The position numbers and the translations under genes are program-made. Shown here piece by piece: positions 13,262-39,850 of a stretch of DNA of 64,000 nucleotides. Within the stretch, counting starts at the first letter, position 1. Each line of letters begins with the position of its first letter. The DNA comes from Bacteroidota bacterium (GTDB lineage Bacteria; Bacteroidota; Bacteroidia; Chitinophagales; BACL12), in the NCBI GenBank assembly GCA_016718035.1, contig JADKEK010000003.1, positions 200,292 through 264,291 of the forward strand. Reading direction: 5' to 3'. The notes beneath the pieces are model-generated. The model was not told where the DNA came from, made no database searches, and saw only the letters and a program-made list of their open reading frames with translations.

Positions 13262-14140
13262 ATGTTTCAATTCGACTATCAACAACCAAAGGTGATTGCA
13301 GAAATTGGATGTAATCATATGGGTGATTTTGAGATTGCAAAAACGCTTATTCGGTTAGCAAAAGAATGTGGCGCTGATTATGCAAAATTCCAAAAACGCA
13401 ATCCCAAAGAATTATTAAGCGAACAACAATACAACGCTTCACATCCTGAGCCTTGGCAGAGTTATGGTGAAACATACGGCCAACATCGCGAGTACCTCGA
13501 ATTTAATATTGAACAACATCAACAATTAAAAACATATGCTGAATCCATTGGCATTGGATACAGTGCATCTGTTTGGGATATAAGTAGTGCAAATGATATT
13601 ATTAAGTTACAGCCTGACTTTATTAAAATTCCATCTGCCTGTAATTTAAATATGCAGTTATTAAGTGTTTTACGAGATAATTACCAGGGTGATGTTCACA
13701 TATCAATAGGTATGACCACATCGGCAGAAACAGCATCAATTGTAGCCTTTTTTAATAATACGCCGGAAAATAAAAATAGATTGATTTTATATAGTTGCAC
13801 TAGCGGTTACCCAATAAAATTTAATGAAATCTGTTTATTGGAAATAAATAAATTATATCAAAACTACGGAGATAAGGTAAAAGCAATTGGGTTTAGTGGT
13901 CATCATTTAGGTATTGCAACTGACATAGCTGCTTATACACTTGGAGCTCGTTGGATTGAACGTCATTTTACCCAAGACAGAACATGGAAAGGCACTGATC
14001 ATGCTGCAAGTTTGGAAGTTCCGGGCTTACAAAAATTGGTTCGCGATTTACACCACACCTTTGAAGCATTACAATATAAAGAGAAAGAAATATTAGATGT
14101 TGAAACTGTTCAACGCAACAAATTAAAAAATAACGGGTAA
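13262..14140 (+). CDS. NeuB-family nonulosonic acid (Kdn / sialic-like, possibly 9-phosphate) synthase, short form without SAF domain
   Basis: IAEIGCNHMGD, ADYAKFQKR and GFSGHHLG...IERHFT...DHAASL match the NeuB TIM-barrel. At 292 aa there is no room for the C-terminal SAF domain. Confidence 0.85.
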   Translation: MFQFDYQQPKVIAEIGCNHMGDFEIAKTLIRLAKECGADYAKFQKRNPKELLSEQQYNASHPEPWQSYGETYGQHREYLEFNIEQHQQLKTYAESIGIGYSASVWDISSANDIIKLQPDFIKIPSACNLNMQLLSVLRDNYQGDVHISIGMTTSAETASIVAFFNNTPENKNRLILYSCTSGYPIKFNEICLLEINKLYQNYGDKVKAIGFSGHHLGIATDIAAYTLGARWIERHFTQDRTWKGTDHAASLEVPGLQKLVRDLHHTFEALQYKEKEILDVETVQRNKLKNNG

Positions 14141-14868
14141 TGGAAGTTTTGGCAATAATTCCGGCAAGGTCGGGCAGCAAAGGTTTACCGGGCAAAAATA
14201 TTAAGCCATTGTTGCAACATCCATTAATTGCGTATAGTATTAAAGCCGCATTATCAAGTAAATTGGTTACCAGAACGATAGTTAATACCGATTCAAATCA
14301 AATAGCAGATATTGCCAAAACATATGGTGCTGAAACGCCATTTTTAAGACCAAGTGTTTTAGCAGGTGATTTTACTACTGACTTAGAAGTATTTCAACAT
14401 CAATTGCAATGGTTAAAAGAAAATGAAGGATATATACCTGATTTAATAGTGCAACTTCGTCCAACATCGCCAATTCGTTTTGATGGCTGGATTGACGAAG
14501 CTATTACAAAATTACAAAGTAGCAATGCAGATTCATTACGAGCAATTACTGAGTCGCCAAACACACCATTTAAAATGTGGTTACTCAATGCCAATAATGA
14601 AGAAATAATGGAGCCATTGTTAAAAGTAAATGGTATAGATGAACCTTATAATCAGCCGAGGCAAAAACTTCCGGTTGTATATTGGCAAACAGGAACTTTA
14701 GATGTTATTAAAACATCGCTTATCAGCGAAAATCAATCAATGAGCGGTAAACATATAATTCCATTTATTATAGATAAAAAATATGCCATTGATATTGACG
14801 ATGTAAATAGTTTTTACAAGGCAGAAGAAATAATCCAGCAAACCAATTGTATAAAGTTTGATGAATAA
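14140..14868 (+). CDS. Acylneuraminate (CMP-nonulosonate) cytidylyltransferase, NeuA type
   Basis: The N-terminal AIIPARSGSKGLPGKNIKPL is the NeuA/LegF/PseF signature rather than the KdsB one. TAATG overlap with the synthase gene. Confidence 0.85.
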   Translation: MEVLAIIPARSGSKGLPGKNIKPLLQHPLIAYSIKAALSSKLVTRTIVNTDSNQIADIAKTYGAETPFLRPSVLAGDFTTDLEVFQHQLQWLKENEGYIPDLIVQLRPTSPIRFDGWIDEAITKLQSSNADSLRAITESPNTPFKMWLLNANNEEIMEPLLKVNGIDEPYNQPRQKLPVVYWQTGTLDVIKTSLISENQSMSGKHIIPFIIDKKYAIDIDDVNSFYKAEEIIQQTNCIKFDE

Positions 14869-15826
14869 ACAATCTCCCATATTAATAATAGGCGCAGGCT
14901 CAATTGGAGAAAGGCATATCAATAACCTAATACAATTGGGATATACTAATATTCATGTATTTCGCCAACGCAATTTACCCTTAAGGAATGTGGATTCAGC
15001 TTGTGTGCAAATTCATACCGATTGGGAAGTTGTAAAAAATATCGAATTTGTATTTGCCATAATTTGTACCCCAAGCAGTCAGCACTTAGCACAAACAATT
15101 TCCTGTCTCGATTTAAACATGCATGTATTAGTTGAGAAACCACTTTCCCATAATACTAATCATTTAGAGTTGCTAACCGAAAAGGTGAAATCTTCAGGTA
15201 AATTAGTTTATGTGGCCTACATGATGCGATTTCATCCGCATCTCATTGCTGTTAAAAATAGTATTACCTCAAATGCATATGGTAAATTATTATCCATACA
15301 AACACATTGGGGCAGCTATTTACCCGATTGGCACCCATATGAAGATTACACAACAAGTTATGCAGCACAAAAAGCACTTGGTGGTGGTGTTGCTTTAACC
15401 TTGAGTCATGATATTGATGTGGTTAACTGGCTTTCCGGAGATGCAATCAAAACCGTTCACAAACATTTTAGTTATGCGCCACATTTGGGAATAGATGTTG
15501 AAAGTGTAGCCGACTTTCAAATTGTTTATGAAAATGATGTTGTGGCTAATGTGCATTTGAATTATTTAGAAAAAACACCAAAACGTGTTTATCAGTTTTT
15601 ATTTGATAAAGCCAAAATCACCATTGATTATTTTGCAGCAACTATGGAAATAGACAATATGGGTATTATTACTAAAAATGAAATATCCGACTTTGACCGT
15701 AACAATCTATTTAAAGATGAGTTAGCTTTTTTTATAAATACAATTCAATCAGGTGAATTGACAACTCTTTCAATGAGTCAGATAGCAGAATCCCACACCA
15801 TAATAAATTTATGTAACCATGAGTGA
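14861..15826 (+). CDS. Gfo/Idh/MocA-family NAD(P)-dependent oxidoreductase
   Basis: N-terminal Rossmann segment ILIIGAGSIGERH and a VEKP motif. The ATG at 14861 overlaps the cytidylyltransferase stop by 8 nt. Confidence 0.8.
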   Translation: MNKQSPILIIGAGSIGERHINNLIQLGYTNIHVFRQRNLPLRNVDSACVQIHTDWEVVKNIEFVFAIICTPSSQHLAQTISCLDLNMHVLVEKPLSHNTNHLELLTEKVKSSGKLVYVAYMMRFHPHLIAVKNSITSNAYGKLLSIQTHWGSYLPDWHPYEDYTTSYAAQKALGGGVALTLSHDIDVVNWLSGDAIKTVHKHFSYAPHLGIDVESVADFQIVYENDVVANVHLNYLEKTPKRVYQFLFDKAKITIDYFAATMEIDNMGIITKNEISDFDRNNLFKDELAFFINTIQSGELTTLSMSQIAESHTIINLCNHE

Positions 15827-16640
15827 AAACATTTCCGTTCAGGATAAGGTAATTCTACTAACCGGAGCTTTTGGGTTAATAGGTAAAACCTTAGCAAAAA
15901 GTTTTATAGCCCAAGGCGCTAAAGTAATTTTAGCTGATGCCAATAAAAAACTGGCACCGCAAATAGCAGCAGAATTTAAAAAATTAAAAGCCAGCAAGCA
16001 GGTATTAGTTTGCCCAACAGACGTAACAAGTCTTTCATCATGCAATAATTGTATAACGTTGGCGCTTAAGAAATTTAAACGCATTGATGTTTTAATAAAT
16101 AACGCAGCCATTGATGCAAAGTTTGATAAACAGGCAAATAAAGTGACCAATTCTACTCGCTTTGAAAATTTCCCATTACCGCTTTTGCAAAAGTCATTTG
16201 ATGTAAATGTGAAGGGTTTAGTTCAAATCACTCAACTGGTAATTAAACAAATGTTAAAACAAGGCCATGGTAATATTATCAATGTAGCCTCTACCTATTC
16301 ATTAGTTGCTCCTAACCAATCGTTATATGACTTTGGTGAAAGTCAGCAACAATTTAAGCCGGTAGATTATGTAATTACCAAATCGGTTATACCAAATTTA
16401 ACAAGGTATATTGCCACGTTTTATGCAAAAGATAATATCAGATGTAATGCGATTGCGCCACATGGCATATTTAATGGGCATGACGATAAATTTCTGCAAA
16501 ACTTTGCTCAACTAAGTCCTTTAGGCAGAATGGCAGACCGCAATGAGTTCACAGGACCATTTACATTTCTAGCATCAGATGCATCAAGTTATATGACGGG
16601 AACAACATTAGTAGCAGATGGGGGCTGGACGGCATGGTAA
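15819..16640 (+). CDS. Short-chain dehydrogenase/reductase (SDR)
   Basis: TGAFGLIGK cofactor motif, NNAA, and S...Y.ITK catalytic residues (VASTYS ... YVITKS). 8-nt overlap with the upstream gene. Confidence 0.85.
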   Translation: MSENISVQDKVILLTGAFGLIGKTLAKSFIAQGAKVILADANKKLAPQIAAEFKKLKASKQVLVCPTDVTSLSSCNNCITLALKKFKRIDVLINNAAIDAKFDKQANKVTNSTRFENFPLPLLQKSFDVNVKGLVQITQLVIKQMLKQGHGNIINVASTYSLVAPNQSLYDFGESQQQFKPVDYVITKSVIPNLTRYIATFYAKDNIRCNAIAPHGIFNGHDDKFLQNFAQLSPLGRMADRNEFTGPFTFLASDASSYMTGTTLVADGGWTAW

Positions 16641-17596
16641 GAATTACAAAAATTCCCCAGCGTTTAGCTTGTGTTTTAGATGATTTAATTGATTTTAAAA
16701 ATAAATCGAGTGCAGTTGTAGAAGAGGGTTTACCTATAATAATAACCGGAGCACCGCGTTCTGCTACAACAACTTTAGAAGAAATTTTCAATTCAAACAG
16801 TGTTTTCTTGCATCATGAACCTTTTATCAAAAACACGCTACTGTGGAAAAAGCAATCGGAAATAAAAACCGATAGTGCAATATATGATAAGGCTGTAATT
16901 ACTTCAATACATCAAAGCATTTTAAGCGGGAAAAGTTGGTCGAATTATAGAAAAGCAGGAAGATGGTATCCTTATGTAACTAAAATGGCTTTACACAAAT
17001 CGCTGCCACTTAAACCGAGAAGAGTGATTATTAAAGATCCGGGAATATCTTTTTGTTTAGATGAAATTGCGCCATTGCTCGGTGAGCATATAGGGATAAT
17101 ATTTATGCGTAATCCTTTAAGTATAGTAACCAGTTTGAAGCGATTAAACTGGGACCCAATACAACGATTGGAATTAATTTACACCCATCCCTATTTTAAA
17201 CGTTTCGATATTCATAAGGCCAATATATCGTTAGACAAAATACGCGTAATGCAGCCAATTGAACGCATGGCATTACAAACCTCGTTGCTTCATCATTTTA
17301 TGCGTAAACATGCAGAGCAGTTACCCAATTATAGCATAGTTTATATGGAATCCTTATTCTCTAATCCATTTTCCAATATTTCTGAGTTATCGAATAAATT
17401 AGGTTTTTCAGCTAATTACATAAAGGAAACACATATAGCAGCCATAACAACAAGAGACATACACCCAATAACCAAGCATAGTTTTAAACGGCAATCGAGT
17501 CAATATATCAAGTATTGGGAAAACAAAATAACGAATGAAGAGTGTGCAATAATTAATAACTATTATTCACTTTTCAATAACCCTTACCAACAATAA
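16634..17596 (+). CDS. PAPS-dependent sulfotransferase (Sulfotransfer_3/Stf0-like)
   Basis: 5'-PSB motif IIITGAPRSATTT, then IIKDPG and the 3'-PB-like FMRNPLSIVTSLKR. The ATG overlaps the SDR stop (ATGGTAA). Confidence 0.7.
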   Translation: MVRITKIPQRLACVLDDLIDFKNKSSAVVEEGLPIIITGAPRSATTTLEEIFNSNSVFLHHEPFIKNTLLWKKQSEIKTDSAIYDKAVITSIHQSILSGKSWSNYRKAGRWYPYVTKMALHKSLPLKPRRVIIKDPGISFCLDEIAPLLGEHIGIIFMRNPLSIVTSLKRLNWDPIQRLELIYTHPYFKRFDIHKANISLDKIRVMQPIERMALQTSLLHHFMRKHAEQLPNYSIVYMESLFSNPFSNISELSNKLGFSANYIKETHIAAITTRDIHPITKHSFKRQSSQYIKYWENKITNEECAIINNYYSLFNNPYQQ

Positions 17597-17599
17597 AGT

Positions 17600-18076
17600 A
17601 TGGCAAAAATTAAACTATTTTTAAGTGATGTAGATGGCGTTATGACCGACGCCGGGATGTACTATACAGCTTCAGGTGATGAGTTTAAAAAATTCAACAC
17701 ACATGATGGTATGGCATTTAATATATTGCGCGAAGCCGGTATTAAAACGGGCATAATAACTACAGAAAATACAACTATAGTAGAACGCAGAGCAGCAAAA
17801 CTAAAAATAGACTATGTATATCAAGGTGCCGGTTTTAAGGGTAAACTTGCAGCTGCAATGGAAATTTGCGTTAAAGAAAATATAACCCTTAATGAAGTGG
17901 CCTATATTGGTGATGATATAAATTGTATTGAGTTATTAAAAGCAGTTGGTATAGCAGCCTGTCCAGCCAATTCAACGAAAAAAGTGAAAGCCATTCCTGG
18001 AATAATTCATCTGCAAAAAAGTGGTGGCGAAGGTGCTATAAGGGAATTTGTTGATGATTATATTTTAATCGAATAA
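17600..18076 (+). CDS. KdsC-family HAD phosphatase (Kdo-8-P / Kdn-9-P phosphatase type)
   Basis: 158 aa with HAD motif I LSDVDGVMTD, motif III K, and motif IV YIGDDIN. 3-nt gap to the upstream gene. Confidence 0.85.
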   Translation: MAKIKLFLSDVDGVMTDAGMYYTASGDEFKKFNTHDGMAFNILREAGIKTGIITTENTTIVERRAAKLKIDYVYQGAGFKGKLAAAMEICVKENITLNEVAYIGDDINCIELLKAVGIAACPANSTKKVKAIPGIIHLQKSGGEGAIREFVDDYILIE

Positions 18077-18093
18077 AACCACAATATCAAGTT

Positions 18094-19596
18094 GTGCCCA
18101 AAAAACCAAATCATTTCTTTAAAAACATAAGCAGCAATTATTTCATATATGCTGCCAAATTAGCTGTTGGGCTGTATGCTCTACCTGTTTGTTTAGCTGC
18201 TTACGGGAGTGAGATTTATGGTTTATACTTATTAAGCTTTGGGTTAAGTTCTGCATTAGCAGCTTTTGACCTTGGGTCATCAAGATCCATTTATAGGTAT
18301 ACTATCGAATTCGGTTCGGATAATAATCTAGAAAAATTCAAAACGGCATTAGACACGAGCTATTCATTTAATTTGTTTTCAGCTATATTAACAGCAACAC
18401 TAATAATTATACTCGGTCAATTTAGCACTACCTTATTTAATTTGCCAACTGATTCAAAACAAACTGCAACAACAATATTCCTATTAGCTGCAATCAACAC
18501 TTTTATTACAATGCTGGATGCCGCACCCCAAAGTCTTATAACTGCAAATAATCTATTTCACGCTCGAAACAAATATATAGGGGTTTCAATAATCCTCAAT
18601 CTAATGATTATATTAGCAGTACAATATTCCTCAGCTATTAACATCGAATTATATGCGTTTTTGGTAACGATTACTTCAATATTTGTTTGGTTTATGGACC
18701 ATGAGTTAGTTAAAAGTAAAAATCTTCTTAAAGGCATTAAAGTTTCCTTCAAAAATTTAACCTATTTAAAACGGTCAGAATATGCTGATTATTCACTCCA
18801 AGTTTTTGGACTTTCCTTAATAAGTTTCATGGCAATTCAAGCTGACAAGCTGATTATCGCTATCGTTTTGGATACCAGCGCTGTAACCTTATACACGATA
18901 ATTACAAAACCTTATGTTGTATTTAAAGGGATACTTGCTGCAACAATTCCAGTTGTCCAGCCAAAATTGAATGAATATTACTTTAACAATCTTTCAAACA
19001 ATTTCATACAGCTTTCACGTAAATTCACTAGAATTAGTTTTTTCATAATGCTATGCTGCACAATATTGATTGGGCTATATTACAAAGACTTGTTGTCCAT
19101 ATGGCTTAAAACCAATATATATAATAGCTATGCAAATTGGGGTATTATTAGCATGGCTACCCTTTGTTTAACCTTATTTTACACACAATTTCTGAGAACC
19201 TTGTTACATTCAAATAAAATAAAGTACATCATTTACTTTTCAATAATAGGCGTTTCTATTAATGTCATTACGAGTACAATTTTATCATACTATATAGGCT
19301 TCCAGGGGGTAATTATTGGAACAACAGTCCAAATTGCTTTAGAATTAATATATTATAAATACCTGGAACGCAAATTTATAAGCACTGACAAATTAAACCT
19401 TACTGGGTACAATTATCTTATTTATATTTTTACGATAATTCTGCTTTCAGTTGTCTGCTTTATTATGTTAGAATATTTTATCACCACATATTTATTAAAA
19501 ATTGTATCTTTCATTGTTTTATTGAGTGCTTTTTCCATAGTTATGTATATGATTTTAATTAAAGAAAATATTGTGAAAAGGGCAACTTTGCATTAA
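18094..19596 (+). CDS. wzx: Wzx-like polysaccharide flippase (MOP superfamily)
   Basis: 500 aa and highly hydrophobic, with about 12-14 TM segments. Position within the glycan operon supports the call. GTG start. Confidence 0.7.
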   Translation: MPKKPNHFFKNISSNYFIYAAKLAVGLYALPVCLAAYGSEIYGLYLLSFGLSSALAAFDLGSSRSIYRYTIEFGSDNNLEKFKTALDTSYSFNLFSAILTATLIIILGQFSTTLFNLPTDSKQTATTIFLLAAINTFITMLDAAPQSLITANNLFHARNKYIGVSIILNLMIILAVQYSSAINIELYAFLVTITSIFVWFMDHELVKSKNLLKGIKVSFKNLTYLKRSEYADYSLQVFGLSLISFMAIQADKLIIAIVLDTSAVTLYTIITKPYVVFKGILAATIPVVQPKLNEYYFNNLSNNFIQLSRKFTRISFFIMLCCTILIGLYYKDLLSIWLKTNIYNSYANWGIISMATLCLTLFYTQFLRTLLHSNKIKYIIYFSIIGVSINVITSTILSYYIGFQGVIIGTTVQIALELIYYKYLERKFISTDKLNLTGYNYLIYIFTIILLSVVCFIMLEYFITTYLLKIVSFIVLLSAFSIVMYMILIKENIVKRATLH

Positions 19597-19601: not shown

Positions 19602-20900
19602 ATGACTATAGCAATTATAGTATCTTTTTTCGATTTAAGAAGTGACTTAAGACGCTTAATAGCCGAATTAAGCAAAACAAATAAAGTTATTTTATTTGTC
19701 AAACCAGAGCACGAGGCGTTAATCAAGCGTCATTTGAGCAATGAAATATCTTATCGTCTAATAAACGAAGCCAAACCGACTTTACGTAATTTTTTGACCA
19801 CAAGACTGTTTTTACTATTTAAAAAACTCCCGAAATCTAAACGCAATTATTACCTCATGGAAACTTTCAAAGCCCATGGATTAACAAATTCTAAAACTAA
19901 AAAAAAAGCGTTATCGATTATATTTTTACAAAAACTCATACCACATTTTATGAGTTATGACTTTTATTTAAACAATCTTAGGTATACAAGCAAAACTGAT
20001 CTATCTGGAATTGATGTAGCACTTACATTCACAGAAATACATGATGATTACCTTTATATTCGATTAATAAAATCAAAAACACCGCTTTTTACTTATGTTT
20101 ATAGCTGGGACCATGCATTTAAACACGTAAGATTTTCAAAGCGTATTCAATATCTAGTCTGGCATGCCGGAATTTCAGAGGACCTGGTGACAATGCATGG
20201 CATTCCAAACAAAAACATTGCCGTTATTGGCTCAACACAATTGTGTTATTTAGATCAGTTTTTGAGCACAAATACATCCCCAAAACACACCTATAAATAC
20301 TTTTATTACGCATGTGGAATTGGCATTCCTTCTCATGTTGAAGACGAACTTGCAATCGTAGTTCAATTAGCAAAAACAATATATACCATTTACCCTACCT
20401 ACAAGTTAATTGTTAGGCCTTATCCAAATTTGAAGAATTGGAATGTTTATGATTTATTAAAAGATCAACCTAATATAATATTAGAAGATAATTACAGGGA
20501 TCAAGATTTGGTTACAAGCGAGGAACAAATAATGGAAAAATTTCGTGTGATTTCAAATGCTAAAGGTTTCTTCCATATGGGTACAACATTGGGTTTGGAA
20601 GCATGTTTTACAAAATGCCCTGTTTTTATAATTGCAACTGTTCCGAAAACGCAATACAGTATAAGTATCTATGATTTTGTTTATCAGTCTCAAAATGTAA
20701 AATATTTAATCCATTCAAGTAAACTAAATACGATTGTAAGTAACTACCAGTTGAAAGATACCCTAATAAGTATTGACGATACGAAGTTTTTACATTTTAG
20801 CAATTTTATCAAATCCCAATTTAATAGTGAATCGTTTGAATTAATTACAACAAGGTTTACGAAGCAGTTAAGCAGCTATAATTCACATCGTGCACAGTGA
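19602..20900 (+). CDS. Hypothetical protein, possibly a GT-B-fold glycosyl/phosphotransferase
   Basis: 432-aa soluble ORF packed 5 nt after wzx and overlapping the next GT gene. The C-terminal FHMGTTLGLEACFTKCPVFII resembles a GT-B nucleotide-sugar-binding half. I recognise no family motif. Confidence 0.4.
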   Translation: MTIAIIVSFFDLRSDLRRLIAELSKTNKVILFVKPEHEALIKRHLSNEISYRLINEAKPTLRNFLTTRLFLLFKKLPKSKRNYYLMETFKAHGLTNSKTKKKALSIIFLQKLIPHFMSYDFYLNNLRYTSKTDLSGIDVALTFTEIHDDYLYIRLIKSKTPLFTYVYSWDHAFKHVRFSKRIQYLVWHAGISEDLVTMHGIPNKNIAVIGSTQLCYLDQFLSTNTSPKHTYKYFYYACGIGIPSHVEDELAIVVQLAKTIYTIYPTYKLIVRPYPNLKNWNVYDLLKDQPNIILEDNYRDQDLVTSEEQIMEKFRVISNAKGFFHMGTTLGLEACFTKCPVFIIATVPKTQYSISIYDFVYQSQNVKYLIHSSKLNTIVSNYQLKDTLISIDDTKFLHFSNFIKSQFNSESFELITTRFTKQLSSYNSHRAQ

Positions 20901-21981
20901 GGATAAAAAAATAAGAGTGCTTATGTTTCCCTTTTCAAGGAATAGTGAAAACCCTTATCAACAACTAATTGCTAAAGGGTTAATTGAAAATGGAATGGAG
21001 GTGATAACTATCCCCAATAGAAAATTATTTCCCATATTCCAGGTCCTAAAATATCAATTCGACATTTTGTATCTTTTTTGGCCAGAAGATTTTTATGTCG
21101 GCAAAAATTTGCTAACCGCTTTAATTAAACAAACATCCCTGCTTTTAAGTTTACCTATTTTACGAAATAAAATAACCATATATTCTGCAGACAATCTGTT
21201 TAGCCACACAATTACGCCTAAAACATTGCTTGCAGAATCCAAGTGGATAAACCGTATATTAAAGAATTGCTCAGGAATAATATTTTCAAGCGAGGCAGCA
21301 AAAACAATTTATCAAAATAGTCATAAATATAGCCCTGAAAACTATGCCATCGTTCCACATGTTAGTTTTTCCGGATTTTATCCTAATACAATTACAAAAG
21401 AAGCTGCAAAAAATATTTTAGGATTAACTAACACCTTTACTTTTTTAGTTTTAGGTCGTATATCCCCTTATAAAGGTATTGAGGCAATAATTGCAAACTT
21501 TAATGAAATTGCAATGAACAAAGAATTAAAACTCCTAATAGGTGGTAAATGTGATAAAAATTATGAACCTATTATTAATGATTTAATAAAAGATAACCCG
21601 AAAATTATTTTTATTAACAAGTATATTAAGCATGAAGACATACAAATCTATATGAATGCAGCAGACGCATTAATTGTAAATTATATCGACACTCCATTAA
21701 ATCCTGGAACTTTAGAGTTAGCACATATTTATAAAATACCTGTAATTGCGCCTAATCTACCAACTATCATAGCAAATTACGCCCCCCAGTTATTATATAC
21801 ATACAAACCATTAGATAATCTTGCATTAAAAACGACCATGCTTGATGCAGTTGAGGCTATTCCAAAAATATCGGGAACATCTTTTAATAAAAACAATTCA
21901 CCTGCTCAAATTGGAAAAGTATTAAAAGACTTTTACCACTCTCAACTGAAATTGAAAGAAAATATAAACAATAATGTTTAA
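20890..21981 (+). CDS. Glycosyltransferase, group 1 (GT4-like)
   Basis: VLGRISPYKGIE and a C-terminal LELAHIYKIPVIAP-type GT-B motif. It overlaps its neighbours. Confidence 0.7.
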   Translation: MHSEDKKIRVLMFPFSRNSENPYQQLIAKGLIENGMEVITIPNRKLFPIFQVLKYQFDILYLFWPEDFYVGKNLLTALIKQTSLLLSLPILRNKITIYSADNLFSHTITPKTLLAESKWINRILKNCSGIIFSSEAAKTIYQNSHKYSPENYAIVPHVSFSGFYPNTITKEAAKNILGLTNTFTFLVLGRISPYKGIEAIIANFNEIAMNKELKLLIGGKCDKNYEPIINDLIKDNPKIIFINKYIKHEDIQIYMNAADALIVNYIDTPLNPGTLELAHIYKIPVIAPNLPTIIANYAPQLLYTYKPLDNLALKTTMLDAVEAIPKISGTSFNKNNSPAQIGKVLKDFYHSQLKLKENINNNV

Positions 21982-23365
21982 AGGCACTGGCAAACATATA
22001 TCAATAGCTTTTATTGCTATTTTATTACGATTTGGTGTTGCATGGCTGGGCTGGAATACAAGCTTATTTGAAGCTTATGATAATTCTATAACTGTCGTTT
22101 ACCAGCGTAGCGCTTATTTGCTTGCATTCGGATATGGTTACCAACAATCACTGCCAGAATCACCAGCGTATTATCAATTGGATTCAATTATTACCACAAT
22201 TAATTTAGGTAGCAACTTAGCTACCAATTATGAAATCACTGAGAATGGTCGTTTTAACACCTCGCATTACCCACCGGGATTGCCACTGATTGGCGCAGGT
22301 TTATATAAAATTACCAAAATACCAATTGCCTATTTATATCAGATACTCGGTATATTGATAGATTTAATCACTATATATTATTTGTATTTATTGATTTTAA
22401 AGATAAGCACTCAAAAAGTTGCCTGGATAACTGCATGGCTTTATTGTTTAAGCCCGCAAGCAATTTCCTTAAGTGTTTCAATGACACCGGACGCCTACAT
22501 GCCATTATTAGTTGTAGCCACTACCTATTACTTTTTGCAATACTTGGAGCATAAGTCTTTTAAATACATTATTATTATTGCCATTATAAACGGTTTAGGC
22601 GGCTACCTCCGCAGTGATTTTATTTTACTCCCGTTTGCTTTTAATTTACTTTTTTTATTCAGATGGAATCAATTTAAATTGTTTAATATTCTAAAGTTCA
22701 ATCTTGCAATTGCTGTTATTAGTTTTATAATTCTAACCCCATGGGCTTTACACAACAAAAAAACTCATGGTGAATTTAATCCCACGTCAACCTCGTTAGG
22801 TGCTACATTAATAACTGGATTATCTATTTTGCCAAACCCCTGGGATTTAGGGCCTACCGACTATGACAGGTTTGCTGAAGCTAAACACATGGGATTTGAC
22901 ACACCATTTGAATCGGGTGCCAATTACATGTTTACAGAACGTTTTAAATCGTATATAGCAGAGGAACCGGGTTATTATGCCAGAACATGTTTATATAGAA
23001 CCGGTTATTTTTTAACCGCTCCACATGGTTGGGGGTTAGAAGTAGATAAATATGCCAAAACTTATTCCGAACTAAGAAATGAAGGTGCTGCTTTGGGTTC
23101 ATTTTCATATTTATTAGGAAAATACTGGACACAAATGTTGTCAGCGATTTTTACTTTAATAAGTTTCCTTTCATTATTCCTATTTATGCGGAAACATCAA
23201 GACCTAAATGTTAAATTAATTTTAATTGCCGTTTTTATATCCGTATATTTAAGTCATGTTTTCATACATATTACCTCAGTTTATTTAATGTCGTTATACC
23301 CCATTCAATGTTTTTTTATAGCGTATATGACAACAAACTTTAAATTCAGGAAGGTTGGAACATAA
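21974..23365 (+). CDS. Polytopic membrane protein, GT-C-like (ArnT/PMT_2-type) putative glycosyltransferase
   Basis: 463 aa with more than 10 hydrophobic segments. The N-proximal loop motif HYPPGLPLIGAGLY resembles the PPL loop of ArnT/PMT-type enzymes. Confidence 0.4.
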   Translation: MFKGTGKHISIAFIAILLRFGVAWLGWNTSLFEAYDNSITVVYQRSAYLLAFGYGYQQSLPESPAYYQLDSIITTINLGSNLATNYEITENGRFNTSHYPPGLPLIGAGLYKITKIPIAYLYQILGILIDLITIYYLYLLILKISTQKVAWITAWLYCLSPQAISLSVSMTPDAYMPLLVVATTYYFLQYLEHKSFKYIIIIAIINGLGGYLRSDFILLPFAFNLLFLFRWNQFKLFNILKFNLAIAVISFIILTPWALHNKKTHGEFNPTSTSLGATLITGLSILPNPWDLGPTDYDRFAEAKHMGFDTPFESGANYMFTERFKSYIAEEPGYYARTCLYRTGYFLTAPHGWGLEVDKYAKTYSELRNEGAALGSFSYLLGKYWTQMLSAIFTLISFLSLFLFMRKHQDLNVKLILIAVFISVYLSHVFIHITSVYLMSLYPIQCFFIAYMTTNFKFRKVGT

Positions 23366-24398
23366 AAAAACACTGTTATACATTTGCACCAACGATGGTT
23401 CTGATATGCGCATCAATAAGGAGCTGCGAACCTTGTCGTCCAATTTTGCCATAACCTATATAGGTATTGGCCAAGGAGAAGTATTTACTTTTGGCAAACA
23501 ATACTGTCATTCGTTCCACCTAATTAAAGGCAAACGTAACAACCCGTTCACCATCCTTAAACTATTTCTAAAACTCATTCAACTCAAGCTTGCTAAATAC
23601 GATTCTGTTCATGTAGTAAATGAAAAGTTGATTATATTTTTGTATCCTATCATTTTCCACAAACATTTGGTTGTCGATATTTTTGATAGCATATTTCTCA
23701 TTAATAACAAATCCAGAAACAAAAACATATTCCTTAAAAAAATCCTCTATGCTCCGGCTAAAACATTGTTGGTTACCGATGAAAACAGGAAATCATTGAT
23801 GCCTGACTTCGCTAAACACAAAGTTGCCATTTTGCCTAATTACCCTTACAAATACGAAGGTCCTGTTTCAGAGAAACAAAATAATCAACTTACTATATTA
23901 TATAATGGGTGGTTAGGTGAAAACCGAGGGACAGAGTTCATTTACAAGTGTTTGGCGGCTGATACAGATTTACACGTAATTATGGCCGGTTGGATAGCTG
24001 ACGAAACTTCCAAAAAACTACTAGATCACCCACAGGTAATTTACAAGGGTATTATGAAACAGGACGAAGTGCTACAATTAGCAGCAACAGATTGTGATTA
24101 TATTTTATGTGTATATGCACCAATAAACGAAAATAATATCAATGCCAGCCCCAATAAAATTTACGACTCAATACAAACAAGAACCCCAATAATTACCAAT
24201 GCCGAAGTAGTTGTTGCCCAATTTGTTGCAACGAACGAAATTGGTGTAGTAATTGACAACTACTACCATTTTGATGCTGCAGAGCTGCTACATGAATTGC
24301 GAATAAGAAAAAACCAATTTGTATTCAACGATACGTTAAGAACCATTTATACTTGGGAAAATGTTGAAGGGGTATTATTGGCGGCTCATAGTTTATGA
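23355..24398 (+). CDS. Glycosyltransferase (GT-B fold, GT4-like)
   Basis: YNGWLGENRGTEF and SPNKIYDSIQTRTPIITN segments. TTG start overlapping the upstream gene. Confidence 0.6.
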   Translation: MEHKKTLLYICTNDGSDMRINKELRTLSSNFAITYIGIGQGEVFTFGKQYCHSFHLIKGKRNNPFTILKLFLKLIQLKLAKYDSVHVVNEKLIIFLYPIIFHKHLVVDIFDSIFLINNKSRNKNIFLKKILYAPAKTLLVTDENRKSLMPDFAKHKVAILPNYPYKYEGPVSEKQNNQLTILYNGWLGENRGTEFIYKCLAADTDLHVIMAGWIADETSKKLLDHPQVIYKGIMKQDEVLQLAATDCDYILCVYAPINENNINASPNKIYDSIQTRTPIITNAEVVVAQFVATNEIGVVIDNYYHFDAAELLHELRIRKNQFVFNDTLRTIYTWENVEGVLLAAHSL

Positions 24399-25498
24399 AA
24401 ATACTACTTTGCACCAATGCATTTGAAACCGTGAGCAATGGCCCTGCCAAATTTGCACACTTAGTATTGGAAATGGAGCGTTATTTCCCCGACTGTGAAG
24501 TGCGCGTGTTAACAGAGGATTGCACAACTCCTGTTAAAGACAAAATTTACAAGCAACAACTTAGTATACCTCAGATACTAAAACCATTAGGCATGTTTTT
24601 GCGCATGTTTCAATACCATAACAAGGCAATGTCTATCAAACACACTGATTATAATTTTGATTATCTCGTATACAATAATGCTATTGTCGGAATATGGAGT
24701 GGATTGTGTTTTAAAAATACAATTGGGTTCATCAATGACGACACTTATGCCACTGCAAGTTGGAAATCTTTTTGGGGGGTGAATTGGACCAAGGGAAGAA
24801 TATTTTTTATCACAGAGAAAATAGCGTGTAAATGTCTGCGTTTGATTATTGTAAATTCCAATTATTTAAGCGCTTTAATTCAAAAAAAATATCGAGTTCC
24901 GGCTCATAAGGTTCAACGATTATATAAAGCTAAAGGAGTTGAAAATGAGCTTCCTACTAAATCAAACCCGGTGCCAACAATATTGTTTGTAAAAAATGAT
25001 TATTTACGTGGTGGCTTATTCAACCTGATTGATGCTTTAAAACAAATATCTCAACCTTTCAAGTTAATTATTGCAGGACCTCACGCTGCGAGTAAACAAC
25101 CAATATTATCTTATATTGGACAGCAACACCAACTAGAAGTAGAATTTAAAGGAATTGTGACACCAACAGAAATATATGATGATATGAGAAAAGCAGACAT
25201 CTTTTGTGTGCCATCAACAAAAGAAGCTTTAGGTGTAGCCAATATTGAAGCCTTAGCACTAGGATGCACGGTAATAAGTACCCAAGTAGGTGGTATACCG
25301 GAAGTTTTAGATAATGGCAATAACGGATGGTTAGTGCCACCTGATAATCCTAAAGCCCTCGCCAATGCAATTCAAACTGCCCTTTCTAACCCAGATTTAT
25401 GTGCAGAAAAAACAAAAAACGGGCATATATTTGTTGAACAATTTAACTTGGGTAATGTGTTATCCAATTTCAAGCAGCTTATAACTAACCTTGGCTAG
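24395..25498 (+). CDS. Glycosyltransferase, group 1 (GT4)
   Basis: Classic EX7E region: PSTKEALGVANIEALALGCTVISTQVGGIPEVL. ATGA overlap upstream. Confidence 0.85.
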   Translation: MKILLCTNAFETVSNGPAKFAHLVLEMERYFPDCEVRVLTEDCTTPVKDKIYKQQLSIPQILKPLGMFLRMFQYHNKAMSIKHTDYNFDYLVYNNAIVGIWSGLCFKNTIGFINDDTYATASWKSFWGVNWTKGRIFFITEKIACKCLRLIIVNSNYLSALIQKKYRVPAHKVQRLYKAKGVENELPTKSNPVPTILFVKNDYLRGGLFNLIDALKQISQPFKLIIAGPHAASKQPILSYIGQQHQLEVEFKGIVTPTEIYDDMRKADIFCVPSTKEALGVANIEALALGCTVISTQVGGIPEVLDNGNNGWLVPPDNPKALANAIQTALSNPDLCAEKTKNGHIFVEQFNLGNVLSNFKQLITNLG

Positions 25499-26774
25499 AG
25501 CACTCACACAACAGCAAAAAATATTCAGAAATGTGGATTTCATATTACTGAATATTAATGCATTATTAATAATATTAGGTTACGGTTTAGCTGTTTATAC
25601 AGACACCGCATCTGTGCCAATGGTAAAACTCATAAAAACGGCATTTTTAGCTGTTTCACTGATTGCACTGTTAAAGAATTTACAATTTAAGAGTAATCCC
25701 TTTCCAAGTCCTACAATTATTTACTTATTGGTGTTTGCCTTCTGGGTTACATTAATGGCGTTTTTTGTTGAAGATGTTGTGTTTTCCATTATGCGGGCAA
25801 TGACATTTATTTTTCCGCTTTTTTACACCTATCTGGTTTTAAGCAATTTAGCGAACAAGTATGATGTGTATTCATTGCTGAAAGCTTTTGCTAGGTCATT
25901 CAACCTCATTTATAGTTTACCAATCATTGTTTTTTTGCTAAGTGGTGCAGGTTTTTCACAAGCAAATATCTATGGGCAGACAGGTAATTCCGGACATTTT
26001 TTTATTTCCAATCAATATGGATGGGCCTGTGCCATGTTTTTGATAACCGGAATGGATGTATGGTTAAATACCCAGCCCAAAAAAATATATAAATATTATT
26101 TATTAGGCACAAGCGTAGTAGGTCTCTTTTTAGTAATGGCAAGTGGGAATAGGGCTTCCTGGGTTGCCATATGTTTAGCCATTATCATTTTTACATTACG
26201 ATTAAAAAATATCCGTTCAGATTTTAAATTGTTGATAGCTTTAATACCAATTGTTGGCATAATCTGGTTTTATCAATTACCTGAATCCTCTTTGCAGGCA
26301 AGGTTATCGGATACAGAAACACAAATCGATAAAGGAGAAGCAAGATTCAATACTGCAAAATATGCATTCGGCGTATTTAATGAAGATAAAATAAAATGGA
26401 TAACCGGAGCCGGCATGTTTAATTACGAAGGAACAATTGGCTCCGATGGCCTTGGCGACTATCACAATTCCTATTTAGAGGTATTATTTGGTGGTGGCAT
26501 AGGCTTATTTATCATGTTTATAAACTTTATGATTTTCAGGCCGTTTTATTATTATATTAAATATTATTCGAAAACTTTTTTATTAATCACACCTGTAGCA
26601 ATTATCCCGGTTTTTGAAAGTAATCTTACAGGTGGTCAATTTTTATTCTACCCGTGGTTTGTTTTTATTTTGTTATTTAACATCCCTCCTGAATATGATA
26701 AAAAGCGATGGGAATTAATTCAGTCCAAAAAGGAAAAGCAACAAAAGTTGTTAGTTAAACCAAAATTTATTTAA
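25491..26774 (+). CDS. wzy: Wzy-like O-antigen/EPS polymerase (O-antigen ligase family)
   Basis: 427 aa with about 10-12 TM segments, an SGNRASWVAICL segment and a large loop before the last TM cluster. Confidence 0.7.
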   Translation: MARALTQQQKIFRNVDFILLNINALLIILGYGLAVYTDTASVPMVKLIKTAFLAVSLIALLKNLQFKSNPFPSPTIIYLLVFAFWVTLMAFFVEDVVFSIMRAMTFIFPLFYTYLVLSNLANKYDVYSLLKAFARSFNLIYSLPIIVFLLSGAGFSQANIYGQTGNSGHFFISNQYGWACAMFLITGMDVWLNTQPKKIYKYYLLGTSVVGLFLVMASGNRASWVAICLAIIIFTLRLKNIRSDFKLLIALIPIVGIIWFYQLPESSLQARLSDTETQIDKGEARFNTAKYAFGVFNEDKIKWITGAGMFNYEGTIGSDGLGDYHNSYLEVLFGGGIGLFIMFINFMIFRPFYYYIKYYSKTFLLITPVAIIPVFESNLTGGQFLFYPWFVFILLFNIPPEYDKKRWELIQSKKEKQQKLLVKPKFI

Positions 26775-27916
26775 TGCTTAAAATACTGGTGGTAATAGGC
26801 ACAAGGCCTGAAGCTATTAAAATGGCTCCGGTAATCCTATCATTAAAAAAACAAAAAAAGTTAATCTGCGAGGTGTGTGTTACAGCTCAACACAGGGACA
26901 TGCTCGATCAGGTGCTCACCTTTTTTCAAATCAAGCCTGATTATGATTTAAATATTATGACCGGGAACCAGCAACTAAATACCATTACTGCTAAAATACT
27001 ATCTGCTTTAGATGAAATTTATCAACAATGCAAACCGGATTTAGTACTTGTACATGGTGACACTAACACTTCTTTTGCTGCAGCATTGGCCGCTTTTTAT
27101 CGCAAAATAAAAATTGGACATATTGAGGCAGGAATGAGAACAGGTAATTTACAATTACCATTTCCAGAAGAAGGAAACCGTGTGCTAACAACACAAATTA
27201 GCAATTACCATTTTGCACCAACAAAAGAAAATGTTGCGCATTTAAAAAGAAGTGGTGTTAAAACAAAAAATATTATTAAAACAGGAAATACGGTTATAGA
27301 TAGTTTATTGCTTACCAGTAAAAAAGTAAAATCGTTTACATCTGCTATTACTGATTCACGTCTAACTGATATCATCCAATCCAAGAAAAAAATTATTTTG
27401 GTTACCGGACACAGAAGAGAAAATCTTGGAAACCCTTTGGCTCAAATTTGTGACGCTTTATTACAAATTGCTAATAAATTTCCTGAGACAACAATAATTT
27501 ATCCGGTTCATCCAAATCCTAATGTAAACAAACCGGTATATGCAGCGCTAAATAACACACCTAATATTATATTAACCCACCCATTAGATTATCCAGATTT
27601 TGTTTTACTCATGAAACATGCATATATTTTGCTGACTGATTCAGGTGGTATACAGGAAGAAGGACCATCATTGGGTAAGCCTGTATTAGTACTTCGTGAA
27701 ATTACTGAGCGACCTGAAGCACTTAAAGCCGGAACGGTAAAACTTGTAGGCACTAAAAGCAAAAACATTGTTCAACATGTTAGTGCATTAGTAACTTCCA
27801 AAACCGCCTATCAAAAGATGTCCTTAAAAATTAATCCGTATGGTGACGGTAATGCAGCGGCTAGGATTACAAAATGGATTAAAGCAAATGCGCAAATTTT
27901 GAAAAAAACAACTTAA
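26774..27916 (+). CDS. wecB: UDP-N-acetylglucosamine 2-epimerase (WecB/NeuC family)
   Basis: ILVVIGTRPEAIKMAPV, VHGDTNTS, TDSGGIQEE and ERPE motifs. Hydrolysing and non-hydrolysing types cannot be separated by eye. Confidence 0.85.
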   Translation: MLKILVVIGTRPEAIKMAPVILSLKKQKKLICEVCVTAQHRDMLDQVLTFFQIKPDYDLNIMTGNQQLNTITAKILSALDEIYQQCKPDLVLVHGDTNTSFAAALAAFYRKIKIGHIEAGMRTGNLQLPFPEEGNRVLTTQISNYHFAPTKENVAHLKRSGVKTKNIIKTGNTVIDSLLLTSKKVKSFTSAITDSRLTDIIQSKKKIILVTGHRRENLGNPLAQICDALLQIANKFPETTIIYPVHPNPNVNKPVYAALNNTPNIILTHPLDYPDFVLLMKHAYILLTDSGGIQEEGPSLGKPVLVLREITERPEALKAGTVKLVGTKSKNIVQHVSALVTSKTAYQKMSLKINPYGDGNAAARITKWIKANAQILKKTT

Positions 27917-30030: not shown

Positions 30031-30033
30031 CGC

Positions 30034-31950
30034 ATGTGCGGAATAGCAGGTCTCATTAAAACATCCGGTAACAATTCGAATTTTCGAGAAGCATTTAAAA
30101 ATATGCAACATCGTGGTCCTGATGCTACGGGTATTTACGAAGATGATGAATTAATTCTAGGCAACCACCGATTAAAGATTCAGGACATCAGCGACAACGG
30201 CAACCAGCCACTTTTCGATGCCACTAACAGATATGCCATTGTTTTTAATGGTGAGATATATAATCATCTGGATATCAGGAATAAATTAAGTGGTTATAAT
30301 ATCCAATATGTCAGCTCATCAGATACAGAGACCTTGTTATATGGTTTTATTCATTTCGGTGAGCAAATATTAGCTGAGTTAAATGGAATTTTTTCTTTCG
30401 TAATTTACGACAAAGTAAAAAAACAGTTATTTGGTGCCAGAGACCAAATTGGTGTAAAACCGTTTTACATTTATTCCAAACAAAATACGTTTGCATTTGC
30501 TTCAGAATTAAAAACCCTGGTTGCATTAGATAATTTCGACAAAACCATTAATTATCCTGCTCTAGCTAATTACATGAATTATTTATGGTCACCGGGGGAA
30601 GCAACACCATTTCTTTATGTAAATAAACTATTACCCGGCGAATGTTTCACTATTAATCTTAACGAACCGGGTAACCTGAATAGAAAAAAATATTATGAAA
30701 TCAATTTTGATGGAAAACGCAACAACCAGGATGAAGCCGCCTGGACAACTTCCGTTGATCAAAAAATAAAACAATCACTTAAGTCGCAGCTCATTTCGGA
30801 TGTACCTGTTGGATTTTTCCTTTCAGGCGGAATAGACTCTTCATTGCTTGTTGGTCAGGCCAAATCAATAATGCCAAACGAGCAAATACATTGTTTCACC
30901 ATTAAAAATTCGAACGGCGACCATCAGGATGGATTTGAAGATGATTTTAAGTATTCAAATGAAGTGTCAAAAGCATTAGGTACAAAATTGCATGTAGTTG
31001 ATGGCGGAATTGATGTATTACACGATTTCGATAAGATGATTTGGCATTTAGATGAACCCCAATCCGACTTGGCACCAATTTATGTTGCAAAAATTTGTGA
31101 ACATGCAAAACAAGAAGGTTTTAAGGTTCTAATTAGTGGAACAGGTGGCGATGATGTATTTTCCGGATATCGAAGACATCAGGCTATAGTAACCGATAAG
31201 TTTACCAAACATATTCCAAACGGGGTTTATCAATTCGCAGCCAAAATTATTGGTTCAGGTAATTCCAACCACCCAACTGTGCGTAGAATAAATAAACTCA
31301 TTAAACATAAAAATGACGATGCATTAACACGATTAGTTGGATATTTTGAATGGTTCCCGATTATGGAGCATCTGGATTTATTCCATGATGATATCCAATC
31401 ACAAGTCGTCAACAATAATCCCTCCGATTACATGCTGAAATTGTTGGATAATGTAAACAATGAGCAGGATTTACTCAATAAAATGTTATACCTTAAATTA
31501 AAAACTTTCCTGGTAGATCATAATCTCAATTATACTGATAAAATGGGCATGTCAGCAGGTGTAGAAGTGAGGGTTCCCTATTTAGATATTGATTTGATAG
31601 CAATGAGCACTCAAATTCCAACTAAACTAAAAGTACATAATTTTCAAACTAAATATTTATTAAGACGCATTGCCGCACAACATTTACCGCAGTCAATAAT
31701 TAATCGTCCGAAAACAGGATTCGGCGCTCCTATTCGTAACTGGGTAACTAATGAAATGGCTACTATGGTGAATGAGCGATTATCTGCAAGTGAATTGAAT
31801 AAATATCATATTTTCAATCCTGTAGCCGTGCAAAAATTAATCAACGATAACAAATCAGGTCGCATTGACGGAGCCTATACAATAATTTCAATTATGGCTA
31901 TCCAAAGTTGGATGTCACAGTTTTATGATAACGACAATCTACATAATTAA
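30034..31950 (+). CDS. Asparagine synthase (glutamine-hydrolysing)-like amidotransferase
   Basis: N-terminal MCGIAG Ntn nucleophile and the PP-loop FLSGGIDSS. Confidence 0.9.
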   Translation: MCGIAGLIKTSGNNSNFREAFKNMQHRGPDATGIYEDDELILGNHRLKIQDISDNGNQPLFDATNRYAIVFNGEIYNHLDIRNKLSGYNIQYVSSSDTETLLYGFIHFGEQILAELNGIFSFVIYDKVKKQLFGARDQIGVKPFYIYSKQNTFAFASELKTLVALDNFDKTINYPALANYMNYLWSPGEATPFLYVNKLLPGECFTINLNEPGNLNRKKYYEINFDGKRNNQDEAAWTTSVDQKIKQSLKSQLISDVPVGFFLSGGIDSSLLVGQAKSIMPNEQIHCFTIKNSNGDHQDGFEDDFKYSNEVSKALGTKLHVVDGGIDVLHDFDKMIWHLDEPQSDLAPIYVAKICEHAKQEGFKVLISGTGGDDVFSGYRRHQAIVTDKFTKHIPNGVYQFAAKIIGSGNSNHPTVRRINKLIKHKNDDALTRLVGYFEWFPIMEHLDLFHDDIQSQVVNNNPSDYMLKLLDNVNNEQDLLNKMLYLKLKTFLVDHNLNYTDKMGMSAGVEVRVPYLDIDLIAMSTQIPTKLKVHNFQTKYLLRRIAAQHLPQSIINRPKTGFGAPIRNWVTNEMATMVNERLSASELNKYHIFNPVAVQKLINDNKSGRIDGAYTIISIMAIQSWMSQFYDNDNLHN

Positions 31951-33828: not shown

Positions 33829-33832
33829 CACC

Positions 33833-35734: not shown

Positions 35735-35741
35735 TTTTATT

Positions 35742-39840: not shown

Positions 39841-39850
39841 TTTTCAGGGC

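Follow-up and report, generated by a model that had tools for sequence, protein, structure and literature searches.

A rare sulfotransferase gene embedded in a putative CMP-Kdn gene block of a Bacteroidota polysaccharide locus

Background

One of the closest described counterparts of the gene block analysed here is the pathway to CMP-activated Kdn (2-keto-3-deoxynononic acid) in Bacteroides thetaiotaomicron (BT1714 synthase, BT1713 phosphatase and BT1715 synthetase) and in the alga Prymnesium parvum, in which the same three activities follow a phosphorylated route. The block lies at positions 13262 to 18076 of a 64,000-nucleotide stretch of DNA from a Bacteroidota bacterium of the order Chitinophagales (NCBI GenBank assembly GCA_016718035.1, contig JADKEK010000003.1, positions 200,292 to 264,291), hereafter referred to as the window. 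It encodes a NeuB-family synthase, a NeuA-type cytidylyltransferase and a KdsC-type phosphatase of the haloacid dehalogenase (HAD) family and adds, between the synthetase and the phosphatase, a Gfo/Idh/MocA oxidoreductase, a short-chain dehydrogenase/reductase (SDR) and a sulfotransferase. The window cytidylyltransferase bears no close resemblance to the CMP-Kdn synthetase of the alga, with which no more than 65 amino acids (aa) can be aligned.

The oxidoreductase, the SDR and the cytidylyltransferase have their parallel in the ElaA/ElaB/ElaC set of Acinetobacter baumannii KL49, associated with 8-epi-legionaminic acid, and in PtmF/LegF/PtmA of Campylobacter, where the same trio, with a Gfo/Idh/MocA enzyme of about 320 aa, is encoded side by side. 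ElaB was described in a 2026 study of KL49 as a CMP-nonulosonate synthetase, ElaA as a 323-aa Gfo/Idh/MocA enzyme and ElaC as an SDR. In the proposed mechanism, oxidation of CMP-activated 5,7-diacetamido legionaminic acid (CMP-Leg5,7Ac2) at C8 by ElaA yields an 8-keto intermediate, which ElaC reduces to give the 8-epimer; the proposal draws on knock-outs, crystal structures and docking and not on enzyme assays. The related SDRs AciE and EpaB have been linked to the 8-epimerisation of further nonulosonic acids, and the ela genes of Acinetobacter occur in loci that make 8-epimers and not in plain legionaminic acid loci. Compared by family and description, the window system would differ in its substrate, which would be the non-aminated Kdn and not a 5,7-diacetamido sugar, and the N-acetyl-binding pockets proposed for ElaA would therefore not apply.

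To our knowledge, sulfated sialic acids and the enzymes responsible for them are known only from deuterostome animals, and no mention of a sulfated bacterial nonulosonic acid was found in the literature searched. The sialate sulfotransferases WSCD1 and WSCD2, reportedly found in 2022, share with the window sulfotransferase the dependence on 3'-phosphoadenosine 5'-phosphosulfate (PAPS) and the 5'-phosphosulfate-binding (5'-PSB) and 3'-phosphate-binding (3'-PB) motifs, and they sulfate a sialic-acid-type sugar. They are vertebrate Golgi membrane proteins of about 570 aa that carry WSC domains and act on finished sialoglycans only, whereas the window enzyme is a predicted soluble bacterial protein of 320 aa of the Sulfotransfer_3/TPST-like kind, so that by description the two have no more than the superfamily in common. 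The tyrosylprotein sulfotransferases (TPST) and the sulfotransferase (ST) domains of CurM and OLS match the window enzyme in fold, PAPS loops and a Glu/Lys pair; however, identity is 11-15% with TM-scores of about 0.45-0.55, there is no alignment in the acceptor-binding regions, and the genes stand in wholly unlike genomic surroundings.

Neither the CMP-Kdn route nor the Ela-type pair is new as such; the new element is a sulfotransferase genetically tied to both. Genomic linkage makes it the first good candidate for a bacterial sulfotransferase of sialic-acid-type sugars.

Methods

The predicted proteins were searched as single sequences against the Pfam and NCBIfam profiles. The sulfotransferase was modelled with AlphaFold2 from a 71-sequence family alignment, an earlier model from 8 sequences (mean predicted local distance difference test score, pLDDT, 62) being set aside in its favour, and the model was compared with the PDB using Foldseek. 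Relatives of the sulfotransferase were sought among 5.8 billion proteins by word index and, exhaustively, among 1.84 billion with a profile; the GTDB genomes were scanned with a set of closer sequences, and metagenomes were scanned as well. Of eight sulfotransferase lineages looked up, six combined E<=1e-60 with over about 1.3 kb of readable sequence around the gene. For the P. parvum Kdn-9-phosphate synthetase, the coding sequence came from the supplement of PMC6200933.

Results and Discussion

Organisation of the gene block

The six open reading frames that the initial annotation had described as translationally coupled were found on the + strand at 13262-18076. The conserved genes at 18094-19596 and 19602-20900 extend these coordinates, the coupled unit comprising eight genes, which are listed here with the remainder of the locus.

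13262..14140, + strand: putative Kdn-9-phosphate synthase, short NeuB family without SAF domain (PF03102; P. parvum homology)
14140..14868, + strand: putative CMP-nonulosonate (CMP-Kdn) synthetase, NeuA/ElaB type (PF02348)
14858..15826 (likely start ATG 14861), + strand: Gfo/Idh/MocA NAD(P) oxidoreductase, ElaA-like (PF01408, PF22725)
15819..16640, + strand: SDR reductase, PtmA/ElaC-like (adh_short, adh_short_C2)
16634..17596, + strand: predicted PAPS-dependent sulfotransferase of a rare TPST-like clade (Sulfotransfer_3, model, motifs)
17600..18076, + strand: putative Kdn-9-phosphate phosphatase, KdsC-type HAD (NF058599, TIGR01670, 3e81)
18094..19596, + strand: 500-aa polytopic membrane protein, probable repeat-unit flippase (conservation with the module)
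19602..20900, + strand: 432-aa protein of an unannotated family, candidate Kdn (nonulosonate) transferase (linkage)
20890..42280, + strand: remainder of a Wzx/Wzy-type polysaccharide locus (Pfam and NCBIfam matches)

The block of six is translationally coupled at its junctions: NeuB and NeuA overlap by 1 nt (TAATG), NeuA and Gfo by 8 nt from ATG 14861, Gfo and SDR by 8 nt and SDR and sulfotransferase by 7 nt, and a gap of 3 nt separates the sulfotransferase from the HAD gene. ATG 14861 is the start chosen by gene callers in related contigs; from the TTG at 14858 of the mechanical reading-frame list the overlap with NeuA would be 11 nt. The motifs quoted in the initial annotation were all present (IAEIGCNH and SGHH...DHAAS in the synthase, IIPARSGSKGLPGKN in NeuA, GAPRSATT and RNPLSIVTS in the sulfotransferase), and the profile searches returned for each of the six proteins the family that had been predicted.

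The sulfotransferase and its genomic linkage

Membership of the protein encoded at 16634-17596 in the sulfotransferase superfamily is regarded as secure from its motifs, profile match and predicted fold. It matches Sulfotransfer_3 with 32.9 bits (cut-off 27, E 1e-7), as do 69 of 71 family members, and the model has a pLDDT of 94.8 and a predicted TM-score (pTM) of 0.92. Sulfotransferase-fold proteins account for 49 of the top 50 Foldseek matches (probability 0.99-1.0), with the CurM ST domain at the top and TPST1/2, OLS ST, LGS1, retinol dehydratase, heparan 3-O-sulfotransferase (3-OST) and Stf9 among the others; the TM-scores to these folds are only 0.36-0.55, which places the protein on a distant branch. 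Both PAPS loops are intact, P41-R42-S43-A44-T45-T46 on the 5' side and R159...S167 on the 3' side, with R42, R159, P161 and S167 invariant and E62 and K134-D135-P136 at least 90% conserved among the 71 members. In profile-to-sequence comparison with the PDB, tyrosylprotein sulfotransferases come out best (E 4e-12, at the 11-15% identity given above), and against TPST the family profile aligns the PRSxTT loop, E62 under 'RCGEE', K134-D-P under 'NKDP' and R159...S167 under 'RDGRASVHS'. E62 and K134 are the candidate catalytic base and transition-state lysine, respectively, these being the roles of their counterparts in TPST. As no hydrophobic membrane-spanning segment or signal peptide was found in the sequence, the enzyme is predicted to be cytoplasmic.

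The identity of the sulfotransferase between lineages (about 62, 53 and 38%) tracks that of the Gfo enzyme (61, 56 and 51%), and this similar rate of divergence indicates that the gene is not decaying. Together with the conserved motifs, the Sulfotransfer_3 matches, the model and its fold, it rules out a pseudogene or a misannotation.

The family is rare, and so is a sulfotransferase in this position. The word-indexed search gave 8 clusters; the profile search gave 15 representatives up to E 1e-30, a number that rose to 123 when E<=1e-10 was allowed. In the GTDB scan a single locus was found, in one of 185,579 species genomes. The four metagenome loci all belong to the window lineage, two as exact copies and two as close relatives; an identical gene is present in NCBI assembly GCA_016720495.1, and related proteins carry the name "Chitinophagales bacterium".

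NeuA, Gfo and SDR genes were found in the same locus as the sulfotransferase in each of the six lineages with readable context. In five, the window and relatives of 63, 53, 38 and 37% identity, the sulfotransferase lies between the SDR and the HAD gene, and maintenance of the order at such low identities excludes a chance arrangement. The sixth, locus L021 of a sponge metagenome (DRR248316), has a 34% relative placed among glycosyltransferases and three other sulfotransferase families; the genes for a 433-aa protein and for NeuA-Gfo-SDR lie on the opposite strand at a distance of 6.6 kb. A further member (P0011, E 9e-69) lies on a 1.3 kb contig with nothing else visible, and no nonulosonate genes were found within the 4.5 kb contig of a more distant one (P0014, 28% identity). 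Loci without the sulfotransferase show the backbone from which the arrangement departs: a Catalimonadaceae metagenome-assembled genome (MAG) has NeuB, a NeuA-HAD fusion and a 434-aa protein without the redox pair, and Dyadobacter sp. CECT 9275 has NeuB-NeuA-Gfo-SDR-HAD. The latter identifies the sulfotransferase as an optional insertion, which in the window lineage is found exactly at the SDR-HAD junction. Within this lineage the downstream set of glycosyltransferases varies while the eight-gene head stays, a pattern that favours the Kdn-type sugar as acceptor over another residue of the repeat unit.

Two other sulfotransferase arrangements were observed. Positions 60-8582 of L021 bring together four sulfotransferase families (Sulfotransfer_1/3, Gal-3-O_sulfotr, Sulfotransfer_2 and the window type) beside NeuA-Gfo-SDR, which points to a sponge symbiont whose nonulosonate-containing polymer is heavily sulfated. 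The window itself encodes at 7591-8469 and 8466-9461 (- strand) a second sulfotransferase (Sulfotransfer_1/3) overlapping by 4 nt with a polysaccharide deacetylase, a pairing that recalls the logic of N-deacetylase/N-sulfotransferases and that is kept upstream of the locus in L001 and L026, beside a PA0069-family radical SAM gene and a LexA-like S24 repressor.

The putative route to CMP-Kdn

The synthase matches PF03102 with 219 bits over residues 29-274 of its 292, no SAF domain being matched in Pfam. Over 285 aa it shares 61% identity (E 4e-135) with the Kdn-9-phosphate synthetase of P. parvum, a characterised enzyme which converted mannose-6-phosphate alone among 7 substrates tested. This likeness supports the sugar-6-phosphate route, with a Kdn-9-phosphate synthase and phosphatase, that the initial annotation had put forward. 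The same annotation had taken the chain to be short for a NeuB protein, and in this respect it needs correction: the P. parvum enzyme has 312 aa, about 40 fewer than the classical NeuB chains of about 350 aa in the PDB, and the 120 relatives listed among more than 8000 found in the database, all at least 69% identical, are almost all 290-302 aa long. A truncated or aberrant NeuB was ruled out by this family length and by the P. parvum homology. The best solved relative (6ncs) is likewise a short NeuB, of 290 aa, and the homologues in Dyadobacter and Catalimonadaceae are 70-72% identical. The NCBIfam equivalog cut-offs for NeuB (186 against 400) and PseI (129 against 340) are far from being reached.

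The phosphatase scores 128 bits with TIGR01670 of the KdsC subfamily (cut-off 107) and 177.5 bits with the Kdn-9-phosphate phosphatase equivalog NF058599, just under the cut-off of 180. Its best match in the PDB is 3e81 (E 1.4e-41), presumably B. thetaiotaomicron BT1713, with KdsC entries at 1e-26 or weaker; the DxD motif is present as D10-V-D12, and E56, R64 and K67, which we assume to have a role in specificity, are conserved in the alignment with 3e81. NeuA matches CTP_transf_3 (PF02348) with 85 bits and has an N-terminal loop of the PARxGSKG(L/I)PxKN type, IIPARSGSKGLPGKN. Its best solved relatives are CMP-N-acetylneuraminic acid (CMP-Neu5Ac) synthetases (6ifd, E 6e-28), its score against the PseF equivalog (149, cut-off 206) does not file it as PseF, and it shares 57% identity with the NeuA portion of the NeuA-HAD fusion in the minimal Kdn cluster.

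A route from Kdn-9-phosphate through Kdn to CMP-Kdn is well supported by these sequence comparisons, and homology together with the paired phosphatase suggests that the synthase uses mannose-6-phosphate and phosphoenolpyruvate (PEP). The UDP-GlcNAc 2-epimerase of the locus is of the non-hydrolysing WecB type (486 bits) and not NeuC, and the locus therefore has no hydrolysing epimerase that would supply ManNAc. A product of the Neu5Ac or legionaminic type was rejected on this ground, together with the low NeuB and PseI scores and the closeness of the synthase to an enzyme specific for mannose-6-phosphate. The DegT, 4,6-dehydratase and small phosphoglycosyl transferase genes at 35-39 kb were also considered as parts of a legionaminic acid pathway; since no LegG, LegH or NeuC homologue is present, they resemble genes for an initiating sugar instead.

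The Catalimonadaceae MAG (L016, 9898-11100) encodes the CMP-Kdn synthetase and the Kdn-9-phosphate phosphatase as one fused protein of 400 aa, which resembles the architecture of the vertebrate CMP-sialic acid synthetase; the C-terminal domain of the latter (PDB 3ewi) was also matched by the window phosphatase.

The Gfo/Idh/MocA and SDR pair

The Gfo enzyme has the GFO_IDH_MocA domain (PF01408) and the C-terminal domain PF22725, and its nearest solved relatives are dehydrogenases of secondary alcohols in sugars and cyclitols (DgpA, inositol dehydrogenases, WbpB). The SDR matches adh_short and adh_short_C2 (147 bits for the latter) and, below their NCBIfam cut-offs, PRK09186 (163 bits) and FlagModPtmA (137 bits). 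An oxidase of the Gfo family and an SDR reductase are thus encoded beside a CMP-nonulosonate synthetase, as in the Ela set, and the window Gfo enzyme matches ElaA in family and size, a likeness by family and description. The resemblance to ptm/leg-type cassettes remarked upon earlier holds at this level, with NeuA, Gfo and SDR corresponding to the ElaB, ElaA and ElaC families.

NeuB, NeuA and HAD proteins are about equally similar (57-72%) to those of loci with and without the pair, which suggests that, in line with the Ela model, the pair comes into play once the core steps are complete. The assignment of C8 as the carbon that may be epimerised in the CMP-sugar draws on family-level analogy with the proposed ElaA/ElaC system.

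The NeuA-Gfo-SDR trio was found on a Sulfitobacter plasmid as well, with a PtmE-like nucleotidyltransferase, and a Halorussus plasmid has a Gfo gene in a nonulosonate-like region without a clean trio. A tblastn search of phage and plasmid sequences for EpaB and ElaA gave generic SDRs only among the matches listed.

Proposed pathway and alternative explanations

On balance, the block is probably the conserved head of a capsule- or O-antigen-type polysaccharide locus, supplying a modified CMP-activated Kdn. The short NeuB would condense mannose-6-phosphate with PEP to Kdn-9-phosphate, the KdsC-type HAD enzyme would remove the phosphate and NeuA would activate Kdn with CTP, these three steps drawing on close homology to characterised enzymes. 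The Gfo/Idh/MocA enzyme would then oxidise, and the SDR re-reduce, one side-chain carbinol of the CMP-sugar, at C8 if the family-level analogy with the proposed Ela system holds, to give an epimer of Kdn. Gene linkage suggests the remaining steps, in which the cytoplasmic PAPS-dependent sulfotransferase would O-sulfate the Kdn-type sugar, the 432-aa protein would move it onto a lipid-linked repeat unit and the 500-aa membrane protein would flip the unit.

The same linkage makes it somewhat more likely than not that a Kdn-type sugar is what is sulfated. The position of the gene slightly favours sulfation at a soluble stage, of the free or the CMP-linked sugar, and the chances of this are not far short of even; sulfation of the Kdn residue after its transfer to the lipid-linked glycan carries appreciable, if smaller, weight, and some other course of this step is improbable. 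A sulfotransferase acting specifically on the nucleotide-activated sugar, with a CMP-linked, epimerised and O-sulfated Kdn as product, is a doubtful proposition at present. The initial annotation had supposed sulfation or redox modification before incorporation; its redox part gains from the match of NeuA and the Gfo/SDR pair to the Ela set, while a nonulosonic acceptor and the timing of sulfation ahead of incorporation are not established.

Several observations weigh against this pathway. The five embedded arrangements may descend from a single insertion, in which case the conserved position would not count as independent evidence, and the sulfotransferase of L021 lies outside the sugar module, among glycosyltransferases and three other sulfotransferases, where sulfation at the level of the glycan would fit. 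WSCD1/2, the only sialate sulfotransferases characterised so far, yielded no sulfated product from free Neu5Ac or CMP-Neu5Ac, and the closest folds (TPST, CurM ST, heparan 3-OST) use peptide, carrier-protein-bound or polymer acceptors. No cysD, cysN or cysC gene for PAPS supply was found in the window, a slice too small for their absence to be informative. The chemistry of ElaA/ElaC is itself a proposal, drawn from genetics, structures and docking, and the homologous PtmF/PtmA pair belongs to Campylobacter, whose product is legionaminic acid itself and not the 8-epimer.

It is rather unlikely that the sulfotransferase acts on another residue of the repeat unit or on another glycan altogether, its position being a matter of operon history only. 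The setting in L021 and the P0014 contig devoid of nonulosonate genes speak for this, as do the second sulfotransferase in the window, with which sulfated glycans may be general in the organism, and the characterised bacterial carbohydrate sulfotransferases, which as far as is known act on assembled acceptors; however, NeuA-Gfo-SDR share the locus in all six readable lineages, and the downstream glycosyltransferases, and hence the rest of the repeat unit, differ between loci that keep the sulfotransferase. A sulfotransferase for protein or peptide tyrosine, or for a small molecule unrelated to the polysaccharide, would agree with the TPSTs as best profile matches, but at an identity as low as that reported above, with the gene coupled inside a sugar operon, the nonulosonate linkage persisting down to 34% identity and no candidate gene for a peptide substrate nearby, such a role is highly improbable.

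The remaining alternatives concern the chemistry. Sulfate could be transient, a leaving group eliminated or displaced to give an anhydro, unsaturated or deoxy nonulosonic acid and in the end a sulfate-free polymer. The idea takes its appeal from CurM ST as the top Foldseek match and from OLS ST, LGS1 and retinol dehydratase ranking high, all with sulfate as a leaving group, and from a gene placed between the redox enzymes and the phosphatase; it becomes very unlikely in view of the low TM-scores, with TPSTs and ordinary sulfotransferases scoring equally, of the lack of a thioesterase-like or lyase-like elimination partner in the block by Pfam and NCBIfam, and of the persistent sulfate esters usual for carbohydrate sulfotransferases. 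A less remote prospect, although still on the unlikely side, is that the Gfo/SDR pair is not a C8 epimerase of the CMP-sugar and works at another position, halts at the keto sugar or acts on a hexose-6-phosphate precursor, the product being another Kdn isomer or plain Kdn. The regiochemistry of ElaA/ElaC is only modelled, the Campylobacter PtmF/PtmA pair has been assigned a role in precursor supply, with legionaminic acid as the product, and the nearest solved relatives of the Gfo enzyme oxidise ring positions of the C2/C3 type. Set against these are the confinement of the Acinetobacter pair to 8-epimer loci, to the exclusion of plain legionaminic loci, and the equal conservation of the core enzymes with or without the pair, which argues against a changed precursor.

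Downstream genes and the remainder of the locus

The six genes open a tight + strand polysaccharide locus of about 29 kb, and the two genes that follow them extend the conserved head. The 432-aa protein has no match in Pfam, NCBIfam (weak matches included) or the sequences of the PDB. It shows 38-50% identity to proteins whose genes adjoin NeuA in four independent contexts, whether or not Gfo, SDR or the sulfotransferase is present, and belongs to a family of 420-445 aa with 195 database clusters, nearly all labelled 'hypothetical', that is present in cultured Runella, Persicitalea, Telluribacter and Rhabdobacter. Its members always lay beside Kdn-pathway genes, and they include the following.

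L016, 11097-12401
L006, 5209-6471
L021, 14380-15208

Gene linkage makes the 432-aa protein a candidate Kdn transferase, and the family may be an undescribed one of nonulosonate transferases. The 500-aa membrane protein has no Pfam or NCBIfam match, weak ones included, and none to Wzx or MurJ. It lies directly 3' of the phosphatase in the sulfotransferase-bearing loci except the sponge locus L021, at 39-45% identity, its place being taken by a MurJ-type protein or an ABC transporter in L021 and in the loci without the sulfotransferase; from this linkage it is the probable repeat-unit flippase.

The part at 20890..42280 encodes glycosyltransferases, Wzy, WecB, an amidotransferase, a heparinase II/III-like protein, a DegT aminotransferase, a 4,6-dehydratase, Wza and Wzc, and differs between related loci that keep the eight-gene head. 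Within it, positions 27916-33828 (+ strand) encode a 704-aa protein in which a zinc-type alcohol dehydrogenase is joined to a Gfo/Idh/MocA domain, an AsnB-type amidotransferase and the heparinase II/III-like protein, a lyase-like protein that is unexpected inside a synthesis operon. A Bac_transf phosphoglycosyl transferase of 145 aa at 35067-35504 (+ strand) overlaps the preceding GT4 glycosyltransferase gene by 65 nt as listed; a misplaced start codon is the probable cause, a truncated gene being the other possibility.

Upstream, the block is preceded by kdsA and a small helix-turn-helix (HTH)-like protein. The latter (12655-13197, + strand; 180 aa), directly upstream of the Kdn block, has a faint ArsR-like HTH signal only, is also present at this place in related loci, with 83-84% identity, and may be a locus-specific regulator. 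The GC content is about 35% throughout the window, which also encodes GldB and a type IX secretion system (T9SS) sorting domain, both markers of Bacteroidota.

Conclusions

The Kdn-9-phosphate route occurs very widely among environmental Bacteroidota, and high-molecular-weight polymers of granular sludge contain both Kdn and sulfated glycoconjugates, although homology searches have had difficulty in finding the sulfotransferases involved. The locus described here offers a clonable module of six to eight genes that ties a sulfotransferase genetically to Kdn synthesis, and linkage singles out the unannotated family of the 432-aa protein, with members in cultured Runella, Telluribacter and Persicitalea, as a likely Kdn transferase. 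If sulfation at the CMP-sugar stage were true, it would represent the first bacterial sulfated nonulosonic acid, the first bacterial sialate-type sulfotransferase and the first bacterial O-sulfation at the level of a nucleotide sugar to be described, and the 432-aa protein would found a new glycosyltransferase family that carries the sulfated sugar into an extracellular polymer of wastewater Bacteroidota.

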